NCBI GenBank assembly: GCA_000998135.1
Contig: LCCV01000004.1
Coordinates: 21,681 to 85,680 of the forward strand
Direction: 5' to 3'
DNA: 64,000 nt
Source of the DNA: Parcubacteria group bacterium GW2011_GWA2_42_14
Lineage (GTDB): Bacteria > Patescibacteriota > Minisyncoccia > Sungbacterales > GWA2-42-14
The position numbers were made by a program, and so were the translations under genes. Below the pieces are notes generated by a model, which was not told the DNA's origin, did no database searches, and saw nothing but the letters and a program-made list of their open reading frames with translations. Of the stretch, positions 6,988-28,310 are shown piece after piece. Position 1 is the stretch's first letter; the number at the start of each line of letters is the position of its first letter.

Positions 6988-9219
6988 TCATTTAATAATA
7001 TTTAAAAATTCTTCCTCACTCAATATTTTTACTCCAAATTTCATGGCCTTATTATATTTTAAACCCGGATTTTCACCAGCAACGACATAATCAGTTTTTT
7101 TGTTTACACTTTCAGATATTTCTCCGCCCAAATTGCGGATTTTTCCTTTGGCTTCGTCTCGCGTGAACGATTCTAATTCCCCGGTCAGAACAAACGTTTT
7201 ATCTTTAAACTTGTGTTTTTTTGGTTTTTGGGATTCAATTTTAATTTTTAAGCCAGCTTTTTTAAACCTGTTTAAAAGTTCCCGATTTTTTTTGTCCCGG
7301 AACCAGTTATAAATGCTTTTGGCAACGACACCGCCTATGTCTCGGATTTTTTCCAGTTTTTCCGGTGAGGCCAAATTTAAAGCATTAATTGAACCGAAAT
7401 TTTTGGCAAGGTCAATTGCCGTTTCTTCTCCGACATGATGAATTCCGAGAGAATAAATAAAACGGTTTAATTCAATCGTCCTTTTTTGATTTATGGACGC
7501 GATTAACTTAGAGGCGGATTTTTCGGCAAAACGCTCCAGCGGCTCCAGTTCTTCTTTTTTCAGAGTAAAAATATCAGCCGCGTTTTTAATCAGTCCCGAT
7601 TCAATCAGCGCGTCAATTATTTTCGGGCCGAGACCCTGTATATCAAAAGCTTTTTTGGAAATAAAATGATAAAGTTTTTCGCGCTCTACCGCGCCGCAAT
7701 TTTTATTGGAGCAGTAATAGGCAACGCTAAATTCCTGTTTCTTGTCAGCGCTTTCTATTTTTTTTACCGGCGAGTTGCATACGGGGCAATGAAGCGGCAT
7801 ATGAAATTCTTTCGCGTTTTTTGGGCGCAGACGCCGCAAAACTCCGGTAACCGCGGGAATCACGTCTCCGGCCCGTTCGACTATGACCGTATCGCCGGTT
7901 CTCACATCAAGTCGGCGAATTTCATCTATGTTATGAAGAGTGGCATGAGTAACGGTTACTCCGCCTATTCTTACCGGTTTTAATGTTGCCACCGGAGTTA
8001 AAACTCCGGTTCTTCCGACCTGAACGATTATATTCTTAACAATGGTTGTCGTTTCCTCGGCAGGAAATTTGAAAGCGATAGCGCCTCTCGGAGCTTTTCC
8101 CACAATTCCTAATTTTTCAAAAATTTTTCCGTTATTTATCTGTATCACTACGCCATCAATTAAAAAGGGAAGTTTTTCCCTTTTTCTTCCGACCTCTTTC
8201 CAAAATTCAATAATTTCGTTCGTGTTTTTACAATGTTTCGTAAGCGGTACTGTAGGGAAACCAAGTATTCTCATAATTAAATGTTCTTCCTCGTGGGTTT
8301 CTTGGCCGAGATTCGTAACCAAATCCCAGGCAAAGAATTCAAGGTTTCTTGACGCGGTAATTTTTGGATTAAGCTGTCTTATGGAGCCCGCGGCGATATT
8401 TCGGGGATTGGCAAAAACCGGCAACCCTTTCTTTTTCTGTTCCTTGTTTGCCGCGTTAAACGCGTCTTTGGGCATATAAACTTCGCCTCTTACTTCAATT
8501 TCAGTAATTTTATGGATTGATGAGAGGAATTGCTTAACGCGCGGATATTTTTCAAGAATAATTTTTATTTCCTTGTGTTTTTTGGATAATTCTACGATAT
8601 TTTTTTGTATGCTCAGCGGGATTGATTCCACTGTTTTTAAGTTTTCCGTAACGTCTTCGCCGGTAATTCCGTCTCCGCGGGTTGACCCCGTTAGAAGTTT
8701 AAATAAAATGTTACTTGATTCAAGGGGCATAAGGCGAAAGCCGTTTTGCTTTAAGCTGTTATTGTCATAGTTGGCGTGTTGCCGGACTCCTAACCGGATT
8801 GAGCCGGTTTTAAAAACGCCGTTTTTATAAATGAGAGATACGGCAAAACCGTCGCCCTTGGCTTCGGCAAAATAATCTAATTCTGAAACATGAAACTTGA
8901 AATCTGAAACAAGTTTTTTGATACGGGTTTCCCATTCATGAAGTTCTTCTTCGGAAAAAGCGTCATTTAAAGAAGTCATGCGAACCGTATGCGCAACTTT
9001 TCTGAATTTTTCCAAAGGATTGCCGCCGACCCTTTGCGTCGGCGAATCCGGTGTTAAAAACTCGGGGAACTGTTTTTCGAGTTTCATCAGTTCGTTTTTT
9101 AGGGAATCCAAAGCGGCGTCGGAAATTTCCTGTTTGTCCAAGACATGATAAAGATAGCGGTGATAATTGATTTCTTTTTTTAGTTTTTCTATGCGATCAA
9201 AAACCCTTTTTTTATCCAT
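6988..9219 (-). CDS. ligA: NAD-dependent DNA ligase
   Basis: 743 aa. Adenylation K-x-DG region, Cys4 zinc finger (CPVCNSP...CSNKNCG), HhH and C-terminal BRCT. Ends in TGA. Confidence 0.9.
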   Translation of the reverse strand: MDKKRVFDRIEKLKKEINYHRYLYHVLDKQEISDAALDSLKNELMKLEKQFPEFLTPDSPTQRVGGNPLEKFRKVAHTVRMTSLNDAFSEEELHEWETRIKKLVSDFKFHVSELDYFAEAKGDGFAVSLIYKNGVFKTGSIRLGVRQHANYDNNSLKQNGFRLMPLESSNILFKLLTGSTRGDGITGEDVTENLKTVESIPLSIQKNIVELSKKHKEIKIILEKYPRVKQFLSSIHKITEIEVRGEVYMPKDAFNAANKEQKKKGLPVFANPRNIAAGSIRQLNPKITASRNLEFFAWDLVTNLGQETHEEEHLIMRILGFPTVPLTKHCKNTNEIIEFWKEVGRKREKLPFLIDGVVIQINNGKIFEKLGIVGKAPRGAIAFKFPAEETTTIVKNIIVQVGRTGVLTPVATLKPVRIGGVTVTHATLHNIDEIRRLDVRTGDTVIVERAGDVIPAVTGVLRRLRPKNAKEFHMPLHCPVCNSPVKKIESADKKQEFSVAYYCSNKNCGAVEREKLYHFISKKAFDIQGLGPKIIDALIESGLIKNAADIFTLKKEELEPLERFAEKSASKLIASINQKRTIELNRFIYSLGIHHVGEETAIDLAKNFGSINALNLASPEKLEKIRDIGGVVAKSIYNWFRDKKNRELLNRFKKAGLKIKIESQKPKKHKFKDKTFVLTGELESFTRDEAKGKIRNLGGEISESVNKKTDYVVAGENPGLKYNKAMKFGVKILSEEEFLNIIK

Positions 9220-20646: not shown

Positions 20647-21291
20647 ATGAGCTGGTTAAAACAAAAACCATTATTCATAGTTTTTGAAGGCGGAGAGGGT
20701 TCGGGAAAAACCACCCAGACCCGTCTTTTATATACCAGCATGAAAAGAGCCGGCAGGATGGTTATGTATACGGATGAGCCCGGGGCAACGCTTAAGGGGT
20801 TTCAAATTCGTTCCATTCTTTTGGATAAAGATACCGAGCCCCTGGATTCTATGGCCGAATTTTTGCTTTTTGAAGCGGATAGGGCTCAGCACGTATCATT
20901 GATTTTGAAACCGGCGTTAGAAAAGGGAAGCGATATAGTATGCGACAGGTTTTCGCCTTCAACCTTTGCTTATCAGGGATACGCCCGCGGTCTTGAAGCA
21001 AAATATCTTTCAGAAATGAAGCGGGTGGATGCTATTGCCCGCCAAGGCCTTGAGCCGGATTTATACATTCTTCTTGATTTGGATCCAGCAAAAGGACTTC
21101 GCCGCATTAAGGGACAAAAAACCCGTTTTGAAGAAGAGCGGATTGATTTTCATAAAAAAATACGGCAAGGATTTTTAAAACAGGTTCGCCAAAGTCCGAG
21201 AAAATGGTTTATGGTTGACGCAACCAAGCCGATTGAAACGGTTCATGAAGAAATTTGGAAGAAAGTGGCCAAACTAATTTTGAAGAGTTAA
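20647..21291 (+). CDS. tmk: thymidylate kinase
   Basis: P-loop FIVFEGGEGSGKTTQ, a DRF/DR motif and an LID-region arginine. Confidence 0.85.
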   Translation: MSWLKQKPLFIVFEGGEGSGKTTQTRLLYTSMKRAGRMVMYTDEPGATLKGFQIRSILLDKDTEPLDSMAEFLLFEADRAQHVSLILKPALEKGSDIVCDRFSPSTFAYQGYARGLEAKYLSEMKRVDAIARQGLEPDLYILLDLDPAKGLRRIKGQKTRFEEERIDFHKKIRQGFLKQVRQSPRKWFMVDATKPIETVHEEIWKKVAKLILKS

Positions 21292-21472: not shown

Positions 21473-23185
21473 ATGAATGATAAATATCCAATTGAAAAAT
21501 TCGCGCCCTTATTTCAGGCCGATGAATATTCGGCAGAAGAACGCTTGCTTCTTTCTCCTTTTTTCACCAATCTTGATAAATCGGTTTATGTTCCGCTTAT
21601 TTTAGCGCCCGAGCTTATCGGGGCCTTGTGTTCCAGAACCAGCCGCACGGCCGAAGACCTTCGTTTGATTTACCTGCGTGAGTTCGTGGATCCTTTTATA
21701 AATCCGGTGCGGGAAGAAAAGGATACGAATGCGTTGTGGGAAGAAAAAGTGAGTTACGGCAAAAACCTTAAGGCCTTCATTGAATTTCTCAAAGGCCATT
21801 CGGTTTTGGATATTTTTTCCAATCCCAAAGCCCGCGCCTTTTACATAAAGTGGCTTGCCGAATACGGCGATGATTCCATAGCCCAGATGGCGGGCGGCCA
21901 TTTGATTTTTTGGGGATTGTCGCAATTAGCTATCAAACATTTTGAGGGCCAGCGTATTGCTTTGGCGCCCATTGAAAAATCAACCCGCTATGTTGATTAT
22001 TCTAAAAAGATTAAAGGGCATTATTTGTATTATACTGACCCGACGTTCGAGGACCTGAACCTTAAAAATGATTATGAAATGGCTATGGACGGGCTTTTTG
22101 ATACTTATACCGCTCTTTTGCCGCGTTTGATTGAACGGCTGTCCAAAAAATATCCTGAAGAAAAACCGTATGTTTTGAAAGCAAAAGCATTTGATACCCT
22201 GCGCGGGCTTTTGCCTGTCTCAACCCTTTCCCAGGTTTCTTTTTTCGGAAACGGCCAGTCGTTTGAACACATGATCAGCCGGTCGCTTCGCCATTCATTG
22301 GGGGAAATAAGGTGGGCGGGGGAGAGGGCGCTGGAAGAATTAAATCAGATAACCCCTTCGTTTTTGCGAAGAGTAAAGGATGATGAGAAAAAAGCGATAG
22401 TTGGGGCGTATCAGGAATATTTAGCAAATAAAGGTAGGCGGGTAAAAGAATTCGTGCCGCGTTTATTTGAAGATAATTTGGTTTCCCCGATGCCGGATGC
22501 GGATGTAAAACTTGTTGAATATGACTCGGAAGGCGAATCTAAAATTATCGCGGGGATTCTGTATTCCAGCCCCAATAATCACCGAAGTTGGGATGAATTA
22601 TTAAGCAAGGTTTCGGGAGTGAGCAGAGAAGAAAGGCGGGCTATACTCGCGGCTTATTTGGACGGAAGAGCGCAAAGATGGCAGAAAGTCGGACGCGCTT
22701 TTGAAAACGCATACGTGAGATTTGAAATAACAATGAATATCGGAGCATGGCGCGATTTGCATCGCCACCGGATGCTTACGCAAATGCGCCAGAATTTTTC
22801 CTGTTTTCACGGCTATGATCTTCCCCAAGAAGTCATTGAGGCGGGGTTTGAAGCGGAGTTTCGAAAAGCGATTGAACGCGCCGAGAATGTTTTTTCCAAA
22901 ATATTTAAGCGCGATGAGGACTTGGCGCAATATGCGGCAACGTTTGCCCACCGCCTCCGTTTTATGCAATGGGAAAATTTGCGGGAGTGTTTCTGGGAAA
23001 TGGAACTTCGCACCATTCCCGAGGGCCATCCCGATTACCGCCATATTGAGCAGAAAAAATTCAAGCTTGTTGAAAAAATATATCCGCTTATTGCCGAGTA
23101 TATGCTTGTGAATATGGGAGAATATGATTTTGCCAGAAGGGGGCAGGAAGAAAAAATTCAGAAAAAAATGGAAAAGTTATTGTAG
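21473..23185 (+). CDS. thyX: FAD-dependent thymidylate synthase ThyX-like, long form
   Basis: RHR motif (WRDLHRHRMLTQMRQNFS) and adjacency to tmk. The 570-aa length resembles long-form ThyX. Confidence 0.5.
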   Translation: MNDKYPIEKFAPLFQADEYSAEERLLLSPFFTNLDKSVYVPLILAPELIGALCSRTSRTAEDLRLIYLREFVDPFINPVREEKDTNALWEEKVSYGKNLKAFIEFLKGHSVLDIFSNPKARAFYIKWLAEYGDDSIAQMAGGHLIFWGLSQLAIKHFEGQRIALAPIEKSTRYVDYSKKIKGHYLYYTDPTFEDLNLKNDYEMAMDGLFDTYTALLPRLIERLSKKYPEEKPYVLKAKAFDTLRGLLPVSTLSQVSFFGNGQSFEHMISRSLRHSLGEIRWAGERALEELNQITPSFLRRVKDDEKKAIVGAYQEYLANKGRRVKEFVPRLFEDNLVSPMPDADVKLVEYDSEGESKIIAGILYSSPNNHRSWDELLSKVSGVSREERRAILAAYLDGRAQRWQKVGRAFENAYVRFEITMNIGAWRDLHRHRMLTQMRQNFSCFHGYDLPQEVIEAGFEAEFRKAIERAENVFSKIFKRDEDLAQYAATFAHRLRFMQWENLRECFWEMELRTIPEGHPDYRHIEQKKFKLVEKIYPLIAEYMLVNMGEYDFARRGQEEKIQKKMEKLL

Positions 23186-23293: not shown

Positions 23294-24301
23294 ATGGCTA
23301 TAGTTGCCATTGATACTCAAAAATGCATTGAAGTTGCGCGGCACATCCGCGAAAATGGCGGAGTTCCGCCTGATAGAGAAGACCCGATGCTGTATTCTTT
23401 TCCTGTCGAAATTGTCCATAATGCCTGGTTTGCTATGGTGGGTATCAACCAGCAGACAACTCCTGTGGTTGGGCTAGCTCTTCGCGGTTCGGTAAACGGA
23501 GTTAAGCTTCGCGGGTGGGACTATCTTTTACAGAAAGCCATTTTTGCGTCAAATCAAAATTACGGCATGTTCAGCGTTGATTGGTTTTTGAATGTAACGC
23601 CGGATTCTCTACGGGCGCTATATCATGACCAAGAAGAAGGCGATACGCTCAATCAGGCGGAAGCGAGGGCAATGCTTTTGAATGACCTCGGCGCTTTTTT
23701 GAAAAGAAAAAAATGGGAAAGCATTCACGAAGCATATCTTGAATCAGGAGGATATCTTGTAAGAAGCGACGGCAAGGGCATTATTCAGGTTATTGCGGGA
23801 GCAAAAGCTTATCAGGATCCTGTTCAGAAAAAGGCCTATTATTTTTTGGCTATCATGAAAAACGAAGAATTATGGCGGTATAAGGATATTTTGAATCTTG
23901 GTCCGCCGGTTAATTATCACGAACAACGGCTGCATCTTCGTTTGGGCACTATAAAAATAATTGATGCTGAGTTTGAAAGAAAAATCCGCAATCGCGAAAA
24001 TATTACCGACCAGGAAGACATTGAAATCCGTTTTGCGGTCAGGCGCGTGATTGAATTTATATCCCAGCTTCTTGAAGCAACGCCGTCTTCCGAGCATTAC
24101 CAATTATGGAACCATGCGCGCAATTGTTGTAGTCGTGATAATCCTCATTGCGCCGGTTGCGGGTCCGGATGCAAACTTCCCGAACGTTATCGTGTTTCGG
24201 GAGTTGTTCAATGCCTTTTTGCTCCGGTTTGTAAAAGCGCGGGACTTGGACTAAAGAATATACTTATTGAGCCGCGGCTTGATGATACGATTTGGCAGTA
24301 A
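23294..24301 (+). CDS. hypothetical protein with a C-terminal Cys cluster
   Basis: CCSRDNPHCAGCGSGC near the C-terminus suggests a metal or Fe-S site. Otherwise unassigned. Confidence 0.4.
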   Translation: MAIVAIDTQKCIEVARHIRENGGVPPDREDPMLYSFPVEIVHNAWFAMVGINQQTTPVVGLALRGSVNGVKLRGWDYLLQKAIFASNQNYGMFSVDWFLNVTPDSLRALYHDQEEGDTLNQAEARAMLLNDLGAFLKRKKWESIHEAYLESGGYLVRSDGKGIIQVIAGAKAYQDPVQKKAYYFLAIMKNEELWRYKDILNLGPPVNYHEQRLHLRLGTIKIIDAEFERKIRNRENITDQEDIEIRFAVRRVIEFISQLLEATPSSEHYQLWNHARNCCSRDNPHCAGCGSGCKLPERYRVSGVVQCLFAPVCKSAGLGLKNILIEPRLDDTIWQ

Positions 24302-24477: not shown

Positions 24478-25161
24478 ATGCCTTATGTTCCCAGCGAAAA
24501 AACAGTTCCGCCGGCAGAGGATAGAAAGATTCTTGACCCGGTTATTGAAGTTTTGGCAAAAGATGCGGCATCAAAGATAACCGACAATTCGTCTTTGATT
24601 CCTCTGTACAAAAACATCTTTTGTGAGGTAGCTTGTGAACTTTGGTTTTTATTGGATGGCGAAGCTACTTCCCATATTGGTCCCGCGAGGCATCTTGCTA
24701 GAACCATTTATGATGTAGCTAAAAAATATGGCTATTGGGGAGCGCATCAAGGCGAATTAAATTATTCAATTACTCGTTTTATCCAGCGCGTTCCGCAAAT
24801 TATGGTTGAACAAAAAAAATGGCTTGAAAAAGATGAACTTCGGTATTGGGTTTACGCTTCGACTACTGATGCTTTAATATCTGCCTCTCGGCATACGGAA
24901 GATTTGGGAATCGGTGTAAGTGGGGTTTTTGAAGATATTAAAGATGAATATAAGTGGAAAGTGAACCGGCCGTATGAGATTGCGCAGGTTATAAAGAGCG
25001 GCGATTGTTATGATGCGCCATATTATATGCGGATCGTTGAAATTGTAGATGAGGATGGAAGGCGTGTAAGTTATTTGGAAATTCCTTTACCACGAAGTGA
25101 TGAAACGCTTCATAAAGACGTTCTTGATTATGAATTGGTTTTGAGGAAAAAAACCAAATAA
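24478..25161 (+). CDS. hypothetical protein
   Basis: 227 aa, preceded by an aaaggag RBS. Confidence 0.4.
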   Translation: MPYVPSEKTVPPAEDRKILDPVIEVLAKDAASKITDNSSLIPLYKNIFCEVACELWFLLDGEATSHIGPARHLARTIYDVAKKYGYWGAHQGELNYSITRFIQRVPQIMVEQKKWLEKDELRYWVYASTTDALISASRHTEDLGIGVSGVFEDIKDEYKWKVNRPYEIAQVIKSGDCYDAPYYMRIVEIVDEDGRRVSYLEIPLPRSDETLHKDVLDYELVLRKKTK

Positions 25162-25203: not shown

Positions 25204-25346
25204 TTGTTTATCCAAAAAAATTTAAGGCATGAACTAAAATTAACACAGTCGGCAACGTTTTTTTGCAAAATTAGTTAAGGTCTGTTACTATGTATTGTAG
25301 ATATAGAGATTGTGAATTGTGTTATGAAATGCAGTTTTTACTCGTT

Positions 25347-25376
25347 TCATAATTCATAATTCATAATTCATAATTC
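25347..25376. repeat. heptamer tandem repeat (CATAATT)x4 abutting the GTG start of the next gene
   Basis: Read directly. Confidence 0.8.
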
Positions 25377-25802
25377 GTGAAAAGTGTGGTAATTTGCGGT
25401 TCACAACGATACAAAGAGGAAATTAAAAAATTTGCCAACCGGCTTAGGGAATTAGGCGTGCCTATTGTTTTTGAGCCGAATTTTGAGCGGCAACGGAAAA
25501 AAATGCTTGCGAAAGCCGAAAAAGAGCGATTGAAAATTAAATCATATAGAGACAGGGTACCCGCAATGGTGCATGAGCATTTTGATAGAATAAGAAAAGC
25601 AGATGTTGGATACTTCTATAATAAAAACGGTTATTTAGGAGTTAATTCAACGCTGGAACTCGGATTTGCCCACGGGAAAAATATGGTTATATACGCCCTT
25701 GAACCGGAAAGGGAGGTTGCCGAAGGAGGAGAAATCTGCCGTGATATTCTTTATACGGAAATAATTGAAACGCCGGAAGAATTAGTGAAGCGATTAATTT
25801 GA
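25377..25802 (+). CDS. nucleoside 2-deoxyribosyltransferase / DNPH1(Rcl)-like protein, paralog A
   Basis: Flavodoxin-like pattern: VVICGSQRY ... FYNKNGYLGVNSTLELGFAHGK (the conserved ...GT.(F)ELG.A.. glutamate motif) ... IYAL. GTG start. Paralogous to 27569-28027. Confidence 0.5.
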   Translation: MKSVVICGSQRYKEEIKKFANRLRELGVPIVFEPNFERQRKKMLAKAEKERLKIKSYRDRVPAMVHEHFDRIRKADVGYFYNKNGYLGVNSTLELGFAHGKNMVIYALEPEREVAEGGEICRDILYTEIIETPEELVKRLI

Positions 25803-25958
25803 CTCGCCACAAATACACTAATGACCACTAATTACACAAATACGTATTCGTGACATTCGTGAAATTTTCGTGTATTGGTGTCGATTAATTTTTGACTTTT
25901 AAAATATTCAGCGCTACTGATAAAGTAGCTCATTTTTAATTAATGAAGGCAAAGAAGT

Positions 25959-26474
25959 ATGTCTAAAATTTGCGATAACAAAAGCGCGGGCATTATTGTA
26001 CGGAAAAACGGCAGTATTTTGATGATTGAGCGAAAAAGATATCCTTTTGGTTTTGCTTTGCCCGCGGGACATCAGGACGGGGATACGCCCGAAAAAACCG
26101 CGGCTAAAGAATTGTCGGAAGAAACGGGATTGATTGCTGATAAATTGGAAAAAAAGCTGGAAATGTTTTTTAAGAATCCATGCAGGCGTGAAGGGTGAAC
26201 ACATCACGATTGGACGATTTTTGAGGCGAGCCGCTGGCATGGCGTTTTAAGGCCCTCGGACGAAGAAACCAAAAAAGTTTTTTGGGCCGATAACCTGGCG
26301 ATTTCCGGCCAGACAGCGCGATTTAAAGAATTTATGGGTAAAATCGGCATGGCGGTTGATTCTGAAAAGTTGCCGGAAATGACAAAATTGTTCAGTGAAA
26401 ATGAGTTATGGAAAGAAAATCCGGGTCTTGAGCCGGTAATGTATTTTTTGTTTAAGGAATTGGGAATTATTTAG
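25959..26474 (+). pseudogene. MutT-like Nudix hydrolase interrupted by an in-frame TGA at 26196-26198
   Basis: Nudix box GHQDGDTPEKTAAKELSEETGL. After the stop the same frame continues THHDWTIFEASRWHGVL..., a match to the MutT 'RHITLWFWLVERWEG' region. Confidence 0.6.
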
Positions 26475-26674
26475 GCGTAGAAATTTTAGGGCCCGGCCTT
26501 GATTTAAAAAGGCCGGGCCTTGTTTTTTGGGCGATTCCAATTTACGAATATCACACAAATGGCTCTAATATTTATTCGAGTCATTTGAGTTAATTTGGGT
26601 ATTAGAGTCGCTTTTTTGACTTTTTAATTTGATGATGCTACTTAATTGGTAAGCTCTTTGAAAGGAGGTATCCT

Positions 26675-27433
26675 GTGTCATACAAAAAGATTTTCCAGTA
26701 TCTTGACCGTGAGCAAAAAAATAATATTTTTAAATTGCTGAAAAAACATAAGAAAAGTTTGAAAAAGATTTTTATTGTAGTGTTTTATTCCATCGGTTCA
26801 ATACAGAATAAATATCAGGAGCGGCCCGGAGATAAAGGAAGGAACGGTGATTATGGGAGACGGTGGCGACAGGCCTTAGATAGATTGGTTGAAGCGAGGC
26901 AAGAAGAACTCATTAAATCCAGTGTTTTATTGGTTCATATTGACCCTACGAAACTTGATGTGATAGTTGCCAAAAAATCAATGCGAATTCTTCAGCCTCA
27001 GCTTAGGTCATTGCAAAAACAATTAAAGCTGGACCAGCTTCACAAGGCATTCAGCCCTATTAAGAAAAAAGAGTTGGAAGTGCTTTTGATGCGTGAAAAA
27101 AATATATTGGTTGTCGGCTGGATTCATTTGGCGGAAATGTATGTTTCCGGCGGCTCGGCCCAAGAAGTGATTGTGGCGGAATTGTTCGGAGTTCCCCTGT
27201 ATTTGAATTCTTCCGAAGATGTGGTGCAAAATTATAAATCCCGCCATGTTCTTGACAGTATTGCCGCAAGTAAAAAAGATGTGGTTAAGAGCCGCAATAT
27301 ATTTTATAACGCGGAAGACACTTTAAATAAGATTATTAAAGATATACCGCGTATCCGCCGGGAAAGAAGCATTCCGGCGCTGGGAAAGCTTTTTGTATAC
27401 GCGTGGAACAGAAAAATGACGGCTTTGAAATAG
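26675..27433 (+). CDS. hypothetical protein
   Basis: 252 aa, basic N-terminus. No domain recognised. Confidence 0.4.
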   Translation: MSYKKIFQYLDREQKNNIFKLLKKHKKSLKKIFIVVFYSIGSIQNKYQERPGDKGRNGDYGRRWRQALDRLVEARQEELIKSSVLLVHIDPTKLDVIVAKKSMRILQPQLRSLQKQLKLDQLHKAFSPIKKKELEVLLMREKNILVVGWIHLAEMYVSGGSAQEVIVAELFGVPLYLNSSEDVVQNYKSRHVLDSIAASKKDVVKSRNIFYNAEDTLNKIIKDIPRIRRERSIPALGKLFVYAWNRKMTALK

Positions 27434-27568
27434 TTGCAAAAAACGCTCGTAATTCTGCGGGCTTTTTTTATTGAATGGAGTGTGATATGCTTTAGAGACA
27501 AGTGACATGGGACATGCGACAAGGAAAATTAAACCCTTGTCTCCTGTCTCTTGTTTCATGTCGCTAAG

Positions 27569-28027
27569 ATGAAAAGCATTGTATTCTGTTCCAGTCAAAG
27601 ATTTAAGAAAGAGATGCGCGAATTTATTTTTGATTTGCGGAAATTATCCCAAGAAAAAGGGGCGCATCTTGTAATTTTTGACCCGGAATTTGAAGAGAAT
27701 CATGACTCGCTTAATTCCCTGCATGAAAAAGACAGGATGCGGAATGAAGAATATAAAAATACCGTTGCCGGAAGAGTTTATGACCATTTGTTCAGAAAAG
27801 TCCGGGTGGCGGATGTTTGTTTCATTTTTAACAAAGACGGGTATCTTGGCGCCAACACCAACGGCGAACTTTTTGCCGCGGCCGCTTTGGGAAAAACAAT
27901 TTATGCTTTGCACGAAAAAACTATGATGGGTCACTATCCGAATGATTTGTATGAGGAGCCGTCATCAAGAAAGCTGATTCATGAAGTTGTGGAAACGCCG
28001 GAGGAGTTGTGGAAAAGAATGGTTTAA
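27569..28027 (+). CDS. nucleoside 2-deoxyribosyltransferase / DNPH1(Rcl)-like protein, paralog B
   Basis: MKSIVFCSSQRF ... FNKDGYLGANTNGELFAAAALGK ... IYALHE ... TPEELWKR. Colinear with paralog A. Confidence 0.5.
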   Translation: MKSIVFCSSQRFKKEMREFIFDLRKLSQEKGAHLVIFDPEFEENHDSLNSLHEKDRMRNEEYKNTVAGRVYDHLFRKVRVADVCFIFNKDGYLGANTNGELFAAAALGKTIYALHEKTMMGHYPNDLYEEPSSRKLIHEVVETPEELWKRMV

Positions 28028-28310
28028 TAGTTTTATGTCTTGATAGTATAATGGCTGTATTAGGTCTTTGAAAAGGAAAAAATATCATGCCGCCGCCGCA
28101 ATTTTATATTCAATGGATAATAGCCATGGTTGGAGTTTTAATCGGCGGTATTGGCACTGGTTTGATTTTTCAAGGGTATTTAATTTTGGGGTTGGTGGTT
28201 GGCGCGATAGGATTGTTGATTTTTAATAAAGCATTAAGGCGTTCATAAAGAACGCTTTTTTTATTGGTTTTTTTATGGTATTTTAATAATGAGGATTAAG
28301 TTATATTAGT

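Follow-up and report, generated by a model that had tools for sequence, protein, structure and literature searches.

The window analyzed here is a stretch of 64,000 nucleotides from the chromosome of Parcubacteria group bacterium GW2011_GWA2_42_14, a member of Candidatus Sungbacteria (Parcubacteria/Paceibacterota), and within it lies a module of four forward-strand genes: parA, a MutT-like Nudix hydrolase gene, a gene for a protein of 252 amino acids (aa), and parB (Table 1). The products of parA and parB, so named here because they are paralogs of each other, are small proteins of the nucleoside 2-deoxyribosyltransferase (NDT)/DNPH1 superfamily, which may remove the base from nucleotides delivered by a neighboring nucleoside triphosphate (NTP)-hydrolyzing enzyme. 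The Paceibacterota are abundant, have tiny genomes, and lack de novo nucleotide synthesis, and the module offers a testable lead, not a demonstrated new system, on how they manage their nucleotide pools. Identical copies of parA and of the 252-aa protein are found by UniRef look-up in Sungbacteria metagenome-assembled genomes, and the base composition of the module stretch carries no foreign signature.

Table 1. Module genes, their neighbors, and associated sequence elements, in window coordinates.
Feature	Coordinates	Strand	Description
gyrB		+	
nusG	18793	+	
rplK	19407	+	
Gene without assigned function		+	
tmk	20647-21291	+	
thyX	21473-23185	+	570 aa
p335	23294-24301	+	335 aa; between thyX and the DUF6899 gene; C-terminal cysteine cluster (CCSRDNPHCAGCGSGC)
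DUF6899 gene	24478-25161	+	PF21840, E 1.4e-9; just upstream of parA
Tandem repeat	25346-25376	+	Perfect (TTCATAA) x 4.4; ends exactly at the parA GTG start
parA	25377-25802	+	141 aa, GTG start; motifs C7-G-S9-Q-R11, E67-H68, N82-K-x-G-Y-x-G-x-N90
parA Glu94 codon	25656-25658	+	Candidate nucleophile
Nudix gene	25959-26477	+	MutT-like; 171 aa when the TGA is read through; Paceibacterota-specific subfamily
In-frame TGA	26196-26198	+	Codon 80 of the Nudix gene; conserved Gly position
Nudix-side hairpin	26487-26522	+	14-bp stem and T run, strong intrinsic-terminator-like; just 3' of the full-length Nudix frame
252-aa gene	26675-27433	+	AAGGAGG Shine-Dalgarno sequence ahead of GTG start; motifs YSIGSIQNKY, GDYGRRWR, DPTKLD, HLAE..SGGSAQE..GVPLY
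252-aa-side hairpin	27445-27462	+	Terminator-like; 3' of the 252-aa gene
parB	27569-28027	+	152 aa, ATG start; longer open frame begins at TTG 27551; motifs C7-S-S9-Q-R11, D72-H73, N88-K-x-G-Y-x-G-x-N96
parB Glu100 codon	27866-27868	+	Candidate nucleophile
53-aa open reading frame	28087-28248	+	Hydrophobic product; downstream of parB; annotated as a gene in the public assemblies of this population
Third hairpin	28236-28258		Terminator-like; at the 3' end of the small frame downstream of parB
gatB	28385	+	
mgtE-like gene		+	

The two paralogs share 37% identity over their full length (BLASTP E 5e-31), which bears out the preliminary description of them as a paralogous pair, and the sequence pattern quoted there is found as C-G-S...GYLGVNSTLELGFAHGK in parA and, in a variant form, as C-S-S...GYLGANTNGELFAAAALGK in parB. 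The ATG start of parB agrees with 120 homologs, and is preferred both to the upstream TTG and to Met16. Public gene calls for the same population begin at Met16 (137 aa), dropping 15 residues (27569-27613) that include the invariant Cys7, Ser9, Gln10, and Arg11; several parB homologs in the databases are likewise shortened to 137 aa. There are 283 homologs of parA, which among the matches listed are 71-99% identical and carry no Pfam domain, and 359 homologs of parB, which among the matches listed are 65-100% identical and mostly 152 aa long. The lengths of the homologs are mostly equal to those of the queries. Close homologs of both families are confined to Parcubacteria lineages (Sungbacteria, Liptonbacteria, Brennerbacteria, Harrisonbacteria, Niyogibacteria, Giovannonibacteria, Nealsonbacteria, Wolfebacteria, and Kaiserbacteria), and all homologs that bear a name are annotated as hypothetical. 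Two names found in UniRef, [quoted passage not shown] for a parB homolog and “MazG nucleotide pyrophosphohydrolase” for parA (P0018, P0131), are inconsistent and probably misleading; Pfam detects neither a MazG nor a TIR domain in these two proteins.

The assignment of parA and parB to the NDT/DNPH1 (Rcl) superfamily, which had been proposed from their motifs, is essentially right, and is supported by fold, transitive profile matches, and motifs rather than by a direct Pfam match. An AlphaFold2 model of parB (predicted local distance difference test score (pLDDT) of 90.4, predicted template modeling score of 0.86) was compared with the PDB using Foldseek, and 33 of the top 34 matches are NDT, DNPH1, or Rcl chains (E 1e-4 to 6e-3, probability 0.98-1.00), including the NDTs of Chroococcidiopsis, Bacillus psychrosaccharolyticus, Desulfotalea, Trypanosoma, and Lactobacillus, and human and rat DNPH1/Rcl. 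The remaining match, 7m5h, has only the deposited name “conserved protein”; PMC12884076 lists it among the 2-deoxyribosyltransferases. PF05014 is the first or second Pfam match of both parA and parB, in each case below threshold, and such sub-threshold matches recur in 20 of 30 members of the parA/parB family (best E 0.0013). A profile built from both paralog families finds 701 proteins among 1.84 billion cluster representatives; of 78 remote relatives, 41 match PF05014 at E <=1e-3 (best 3e-11), and six each match DUF4406 and Nuc_deoxyri_tr2. Three bridging relatives (from loci L075, L078, and L081) score 31-39 bits on PF05014, above its cut-off, and reach E 1e-23 to 1e-34 on the parA/parB hidden Markov model (HMM).

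No significant match to Pfam, NCBIfam, PHROGs, or PADLOC was found for parA, parB, or the 252-aa protein, and a literature search found no description of NDT-like proteins in Patescibacteria. The LOG/PpnN enzymes convert nucleoside monophosphates (NMPs) into base and ribose-5-phosphate on a related Rossmann-like fold, the same net reaction as is proposed below for parA and parB. However, neither parA and parB nor 30 members of their family match PF03641, the LOG motif PGGxGTxxE is absent, the motif of parA and parB being GY(L/I)GxN(T/S)xxE, and LOG structures do not occur among the best 50 Foldseek matches listed. The two proteins, which are old paralogs, represent a divergent, uncharacterized, Paceibacterota-specific branch of the known NDT/DNPH1 superfamily in a two-step arrangement of a known type, and not a new kind of system; two hypothetical proteins without a Pfam domain are now tied to this superfamily. 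A parA/parB-like domain (E 1.8e-46) also occurs at the C-terminus of a 478-aa protein (P0262), behind a NeuB-family (sialic-acid-synthase-like) domain, an arrangement that could be a gene-call fusion.

The register of the active site was taken from hhalign and MAFFT alignments with human DNPH1, the query sequence of which was checked against PDB chains. DNPH1 binds the 5'-phosphate through the I29-R30-G31 and G100 backbone and through S98, E104 attacks C1' of the sugar, Y24 hydrogen-bonds to E104, and D80 has been proposed as the general acid/base (PMC10483697). The F6-C7-S8-S9-Q10-R11 segment of parB (G8 in parA) aligns with F25-C26-G27-S28-I29-R30 of DNPH1, an A-D-V segment aligns with A-D-V of DNPH1, and E100 of parB and E94 of parA align with the nucleophile E104, the equivalent of which in Lactobacillus leichmannii NDT is E98. 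This glutamate of the ELG motif, the conservation of which was to be checked according to the preliminary description, proves to be invariant in both paralog families, together with C7, S9, Q10, and R11. In addition, G94 and N96 of parB align with S98 and G100 of DNPH1; G94 is invariant, and at the equivalent position the 5'-OH-binding residue of L. leichmannii NDT is D92. In the pocket equivalent to S98, nucleoside-specific NDTs bear 5'-OH-binding residues, while hydrolases bear small uncharged ones (PMC12884076). Judged by this alignment, a DNPH1-type signature of a 5'-phosphate pocket appears to be present in parA and parB, and the C-x-S-x-R loop, together with the small residue at the position of the 5'-OH-binding Asp of NDTs, suggests that both proteins require a 5'-phosphate on their substrates.

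The likeness to DNPH1/Rcl comprises the same fold, the nucleophilic Glu in a G-x-x-x-E-L-G context, a β1 loop of the form F-C-(G/S)-S-x-R, which binds the 5'-phosphate in DNPH1, and a small residue at the S98 position. In contrast to DNPH1, which is one homodimer, there are two paralogs, and both contain an extra segment (residues 40-66) with the invariant residues P39, F41, E53, R56, and Y62 in and next to it; the catalytic Tyr and Asp of DNPH1, discussed below, differ as well.

The classical NDTs (PF05014; Lactobacillus, Chroococcidiopsis) provide the best structural matches and share the Glu of covalent catalysis, and it is conceivable, if improbable, that parA and parB are true nucleoside (deoxy)ribosyltransferases that swap bases between (deoxy)nucleosides and balance salvaged DNA precursors as in lactobacilli. 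Under that reading, a role in deoxynucleotide supply would be reflected in the proximity of tmk and thyX, which lie in conserved synteny with the module; the recurrence of PF05014 as a weak match points the same way, and an archaeal superfamily member that lacks the β1 Tyr is an N-ribosyltransferase (PMC7308715). In contrast, classical NDTs act on nucleosides through Tyr7 and a 5'-OH-binding Asp or Asn (PMC12884076), and the corresponding residues of parA and parB are Val5 and the invariant G94. The β1 loop is moreover of the DNPH1-type C-x-S-x-R form, with an Arg that is typical of hydrolases, and the conserved genetic partners hydrolyze NTPs, which yields nucleotides rather than nucleosides.

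These partners are evident from the gene neighborhoods of 65 related genome loci (designated by L numbers), across which the order nusG-rplK-tmk-(thyX)-...-parA-Nudix-parB-gatB recurs. Of the 56 Paceibacterota loci with enough flanking sequence for the count, 40 have a Nudix gene immediately before parB (ending within 1.2 kb upstream on the same strand), and in 22 of 24 loci a Nudix gene comes within 400 bp after parA, so that far from never co-occurring with the homologs, Nudix genes are next door in most loci, and the linkage seen in the window reaches well beyond this genome. Typical gaps are 8-31 bp between parA and Nudix and about 50-60 bp between Nudix and parB, a spacing that would be expected of an operon in those relatives. 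Of the two exceptions, L015 has the order Nudix-Nudix-parA-parB, and the close Sungbacteria relative L053 carries in the Nudix slot, between parA and the 252-aa gene (8440-8960), an NTPase_I-T gene encoding a YjjX-type non-canonical purine NTPase (PF01931, E 2.9e-32). L053 thus represents a non-orthologous replacement of Nudix by another nucleotide house-cleaning enzyme.

Similar pairings are found among the remote relatives. In L075, a gap of 12 bp separates the gene of a PF05014-positive relative of 129 aa from a downstream Nudix gene, which belongs to the subfamily found in the window (E 6e-46). In L078 (1382-4275), a Nudix protein with an N-terminal winged-helix domain is followed by a 303-aa fusion of NDT-like and NTPase_I-T domains, and the locus also encodes a second protein of the NDT-like type (38.8 bits on PF05014) and, on the opposite strand, a Ham1-family ITPase. 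One remote relative also matches a MazG domain, and such a fused relative is probably the source of the MazG label given to parA in UniRef. Eight remote relatives were sampled: partners were found in three, informative flanks without a partner in two, and contigs shorter than 2 kb in three. The NDT-like domain is therefore tied by adjacency, replacement, or fusion to NTP-hydrolyzing house-cleaning enzymes of three unrelated folds, and a fourth type, Ham1, is a neighbor in one locus. At L081 (81-3393), the gene for a 664-aa dCMP deaminase-Nudix-ThyA fusion precedes one for a dCTP deaminase/dUTPase-like protein and one for an NDT-like relative, and gatB lies downstream of these; this fusion was considered as a tie between the Nudix subfamily of the window and dTMP synthesis and was rejected, as the L081 Nudix domain fails the subfamily HMM and the link is thematic only.

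The best reading of the module, to which we assign a probability of about 0.5, is that an NTP pyrophosphatase feeds parA and parB as predicted N-glycosidases of NMPs or deoxynucleoside monophosphates (dNMPs), in nucleotide sanitation or salvage. The Nudix enzyme, or an NTPase_I-T or MazG-type enzyme in its place, would hydrolyze non-canonical or surplus (deoxy)NTPs, presumably to the monophosphate. The invariant Glu (Glu94 in parA, Glu100 in parB) would then attack C1' of the sugar to form a covalent intermediate, with release of the free base and, eventually, of ribose- or deoxyribose-5-phosphate. Removal of the base would make the clearance irreversible, and both base and sugar phosphate would be returned to a salvage-dependent cell. 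The two paralogs might differ in base specificity or form a heterodimer, the latter being plausible because tandem NDT-like domains occur in relatives and the active sites of DNPH1 are dimeric, residues of the neighboring subunit completing each site. The proposal of a salvage module made in the preliminary description is thereby favored in the form of salvage or sanitation; that the chemistry is that of hydrolases rather than transferases, and which substrates and sugar are preferred, is what we infer, while the homology, the fold, the invariant residues, the conserved gene linkage, the fusions, and the gene replacement are shown.

The setting of the module is one of housekeeping and nucleotide metabolism (nusG-rplK-tmk-thyX...gatB). 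A mammalian analog of the proposed route is the DCTPP1-DNPH1 pair, in which an NTP pyrophosphatase acts upstream of DNPH1. The role of DNPH1 has been stated in PMC12751057 and PMC10483697. If parA and parB are indeed (d)NMP N-glycosidases, they would constitute a bacterial counterpart of DCTPP1-DNPH1 sanitation, or a means of feeding bases and sugar phosphates back to metabolism, and their altered catalytic set, which lacks the Tyr and includes a conserved His, would extend what is known of the superfamily mechanism.

The coupling of an NTP-hydrolyzing enzyme to an NDT-family protein also recalls the DutZ-DmtZ system of Z-genome phages, in which the NTP hydrolase DutZ is adjacent or fused to the NDT-family dAMP hydrolase/transferase DmtZ (PMC12884076), much as Nudix, NTPase_I-T, or MazG enzymes accompany parA and parB. 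The most interesting alternative, although quite an unlikely one, is that parA and parB are DmtZ-type phospho(deoxy)ribosyltransferases, which would move (deoxy)ribose-5-phosphate from one nucleotide onto another free base and so interconvert (d)NMPs directly in an organism that lacks de novo synthesis, possibly as a heterodimer with two specificities. DmtZ itself is a natural example of such chemistry within the superfamily, with genetic coupling to an NTP hydrolase, and an obligate dimer would be in keeping with the two co-conserved paralogs and with the tandem NDT-like domains of relatives. Both families also conserve P39 after β2, and known transferases keep a water-excluding Pro (PMC12884076), to which P39 may correspond. 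In contrast, DmtZ, which transfers deoxyribose-5-phosphate to 2-aminoadenine, keeps a Tyr/Asn/Glu triad, the Tyr of which is lost in parA and parB, and DutZ is dUTPase-like rather than a Nudix enzyme and belongs to a viral, not a core cellular, system. A specific form of this alternative, equally long a shot, takes parA and parB as a heteromeric base-exchange phospho(deoxy)ribosyltransferase with a Val/His/Glu active site, a core salvage hub that interconverts scavenged (d)NMPs with donors supplied by the NTPase; if true, it would explain why the pair is conserved like ribosomal proteins.

This conservation was measured as the median identity to the window protein across the 65 loci, which is 77% for parA and 65% for parB, compared with 76% for NusG, 71% for L11, 50% for GatB, 47% for ThyX, 45% for Nudix, and 28% for Tmk. 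Both paralogs are thus under unusually strong constraint, at the level of NusG and L11, which is compatible with an oligomeric enzyme having many interfaces. It can also be counted in favor of a substrate other than free mononucleotides, such as NAD or ADP-ribose, with a TIR-like glycohydrolase followed by a Nudix ADP-ribose pyrophosphatase, or a nucleic-acid- or ribosome-associated substrate, as can the translation or transcription genes nusG, rplK, and gatB among the neighbors. The folds of TIR and NDT proteins are related, and the UniRef label of one parB homolog is of the TIR type. A substrate of this kind is nonetheless rather unlikely: none of 30 family members matches PF10137 or TIR at E up to 1, the best-matching structures are those of NDT and DNPH1, the replacement and fusion partners are NTPases, and the solved relatives nearest to the Nudix protein are MutT-type (the Aquifex 8-oxo-dGTPase domain, NUDX1, and MutT), with ADP-ribose pyrophosphatases only among much weaker matches.

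The same synteny and constraint bear on the further suggestion, made when the cluster was first described, that it might be a nucleotide-targeting anti-phage defense or DNA-modification system. Folds of the NDT-like and Nudix types are recurrent components of conflict systems, and the remote relative at L075 lies among small unannotated open reading frames (ORFs) that could be phage-like. Against this, the module occupies a fixed chromosomal position with housekeeping synteny across many Paceibacterota lineages and is under very strong purifying selection, PADLOC has no match for six proteins at E up to 1, PHROG matches are found for Nudix alone, PF10137 is not matched by any of 30 family members at E up to 1, and sensor, effector, or mobility genes were not found nearby. 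The suggestion is accordingly unsupported, and a defense function is highly improbable.

The preliminary description placed a Nudix hydrolase gene between the paralogs, and a PF00293 domain is indeed encoded there (E 1.2e-13, 51.6 bits against a cut-off of 21.1, in the read-through translation); the gene is not intact, in that its open reading frame runs for just 79 aa before the in-frame TGA. The subfamily to which it belongs has invariant residues C5, H38, C75, and H83, the motif NPCxREGGxHHxW, and a helical C-terminal extension. Its Nudix box, G37-H-x-D-G-D...K-E51-L-x-E54-E55-x-G57-L, retains an invariant E-x-x-E-E core but differs from the canonical G-x5-E-x7-R-E-U-x-E-E-x-G-U in being one residue shorter, in having Lys for Arg, and in lacking the first Glu. 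At the position of the TGA, 29 of 44 homologs have Gly, most commonly encoded by GGA, so that one G-to-T change explains the stop, and the family HMM continues to recognize both halves of the protein strongly (E 2.5e-37 and E 2.4e-33).

Gene calls in at least seven assemblies, made from different samples, give the 79-aa product, for which reason a sequencing error was rejected as the source of the TGA; these assemblies are at least 99.96% identical over the covered parts of parA-parB, and represent one near-clonal population that gives no evidence of long-term retention. Selenocysteine was also rejected, as the homologs have Gly rather than Cys and a selenocysteine tRNA is absent from the window, and so was genome-wide reading of TGA as Gly (code 25), as the neighboring genes are long uninterrupted ORFs under code 11. 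On these sequences, the simplest reading is that a nonsense mutation arose recently in this population, recoding or read-through of the stop being less likely, and the Nudix step in this genome looks either disabled or dependent on stop-codon read-through.

Several observations weigh against the proposed route from NTP pyrophosphatase to (d)NMP N-glycosidases, of which the interruption of Nudix in a genome where parA and parB stay intact is one. E. coli enzymes of the YjjX type have been reported to yield diphosphates rather than monophosphates, so that the hand-off from NTP to NMP is not assured for every partner. The conservation at the NusG/L11 level is odd for a small metabolic enzyme, and may reflect a macromolecular partner or substrate. 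The family assignment has its own weak points: the PF05014 threshold of 28.8 bits is reached neither by parA (12.8 bits, E 0.13) nor by parB (14.9 bits, E 0.031), phmmer and profile searches of PDB sequences give no match for these two proteins (or for the 252-aa protein), the Foldseek matches of parB have TM-scores of only ~0.5 with a high root-mean-square deviation, and the hhalign alignment of the family with human DNPH1, although in register, has an E of only 0.08, such that the pairwise similarity is not significant. In the active site, the Asp of DNPH1 is not clearly conserved, as D72 of parB (Glu in parA) and the invariant H73 sit one to two columns from D80. Finally, the position of the β1 Tyr (Y24 in DNPH1, Y7 in NDT) is occupied by Val5 in both window paralogs and by V or I in most of the wider family, some members having T, C, or A, while replacement of this Tyr by Phe lowers the kcat/KM of rat DNPH1 280-fold (PMC10483697).

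Loss of the Tyr hydroxyl is known to accompany the acceptance of ribo-substrates, as in MilB/BcmB and in an Archaeoglobus N-ribosyltransferase (PMC7308715). MilB and BcmB, the CMP (hydroxymethyl-CMP) N-glycosidases, are NDT-superfamily NMP hydrolases that have Phe in place of the Tyr and accept ribonucleotides (PMC7308715), and an Arg near β1 is described as serving substrate recognition (PMC4081090). The likeness, which is one by description, has its limits, as MilB and BcmB belong to antibiotic biosynthesis clusters, whereas parA and parB have a housekeeping context, a Nudix partner, and Val rather than Phe. By analogy, parA and parB may act on NMPs besides or instead of dNMPs, because the Tyr that excludes the 2'-OH is lost.

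The 252-aa gene, initially taken for an orphan, is confirmed as an ORF and is better described as lineage-specific, having been inserted into a parA-Nudix-parB module that is older, with a product that is possibly NDT-like. Only 12 homologs of the protein were found among 5.8 billion cluster representatives, and the gene is present in six of the 65 loci, all of them among those closer to the window in parB identity. In five of the six, the gene is placed between parB and the parA/Nudix position, and in L011 it is upstream of Nudix. An AlphaFold2 model (pLDDT 86.4) has a flavodoxin-like α/β core with helical insertions, and its Foldseek matches, which are weak, are recurrently NDT-like (7m5h, YtoQ, DNPH1, and phage NDTs). 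The conserved motifs of the protein, Y-x-x-G-S-I in β1, WR, DP, and S-G-G-S-A-x-E...G-V-P-x-Y, resemble those of NDT-like families, hhalign aligns its family with parA/parB in register, though weakly (E 0.021), and 3 of the 12 family members match PF05014 weakly. From these profiles and the model, the odds that the 252-aa protein would be a third, highly divergent NDT-like protein are roughly even.

In the window itself, the four genes appear to form three terminated transcription units rather than a single operon, because terminator-like hairpins follow Nudix, the 252-aa gene, and the small ORF downstream of parB. No ORF matching this 53-aa frame was found by phmmer in the 65 related loci, and it is not known to be a functional part of the module. 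The heptanucleotide repeat in front of parA is possibly a promoter or regulatory element, and two weak promoter-like matches overlap it. The tmk and thyX genes lie 2-5 kb upstream of the module, as had been noted. The thyX product is about twice the usual size of ThyX and holds two Thy1 (PF02511) stretches, and long forms are also found in related loci, such as L022, L023, and L053. The p335 protein has no Pfam, NCBIfam, or PDB sequence match, and the idea of a glycosylase-like protein was rejected, as no Pfam or PDB match supports it; among the 65 loci it is matched in L001 only, at 77% identity. In 7 of the 65 related loci, a homolog of the DUF6899 gene occupies the interval from tmk/thyX to the parA/parB module.

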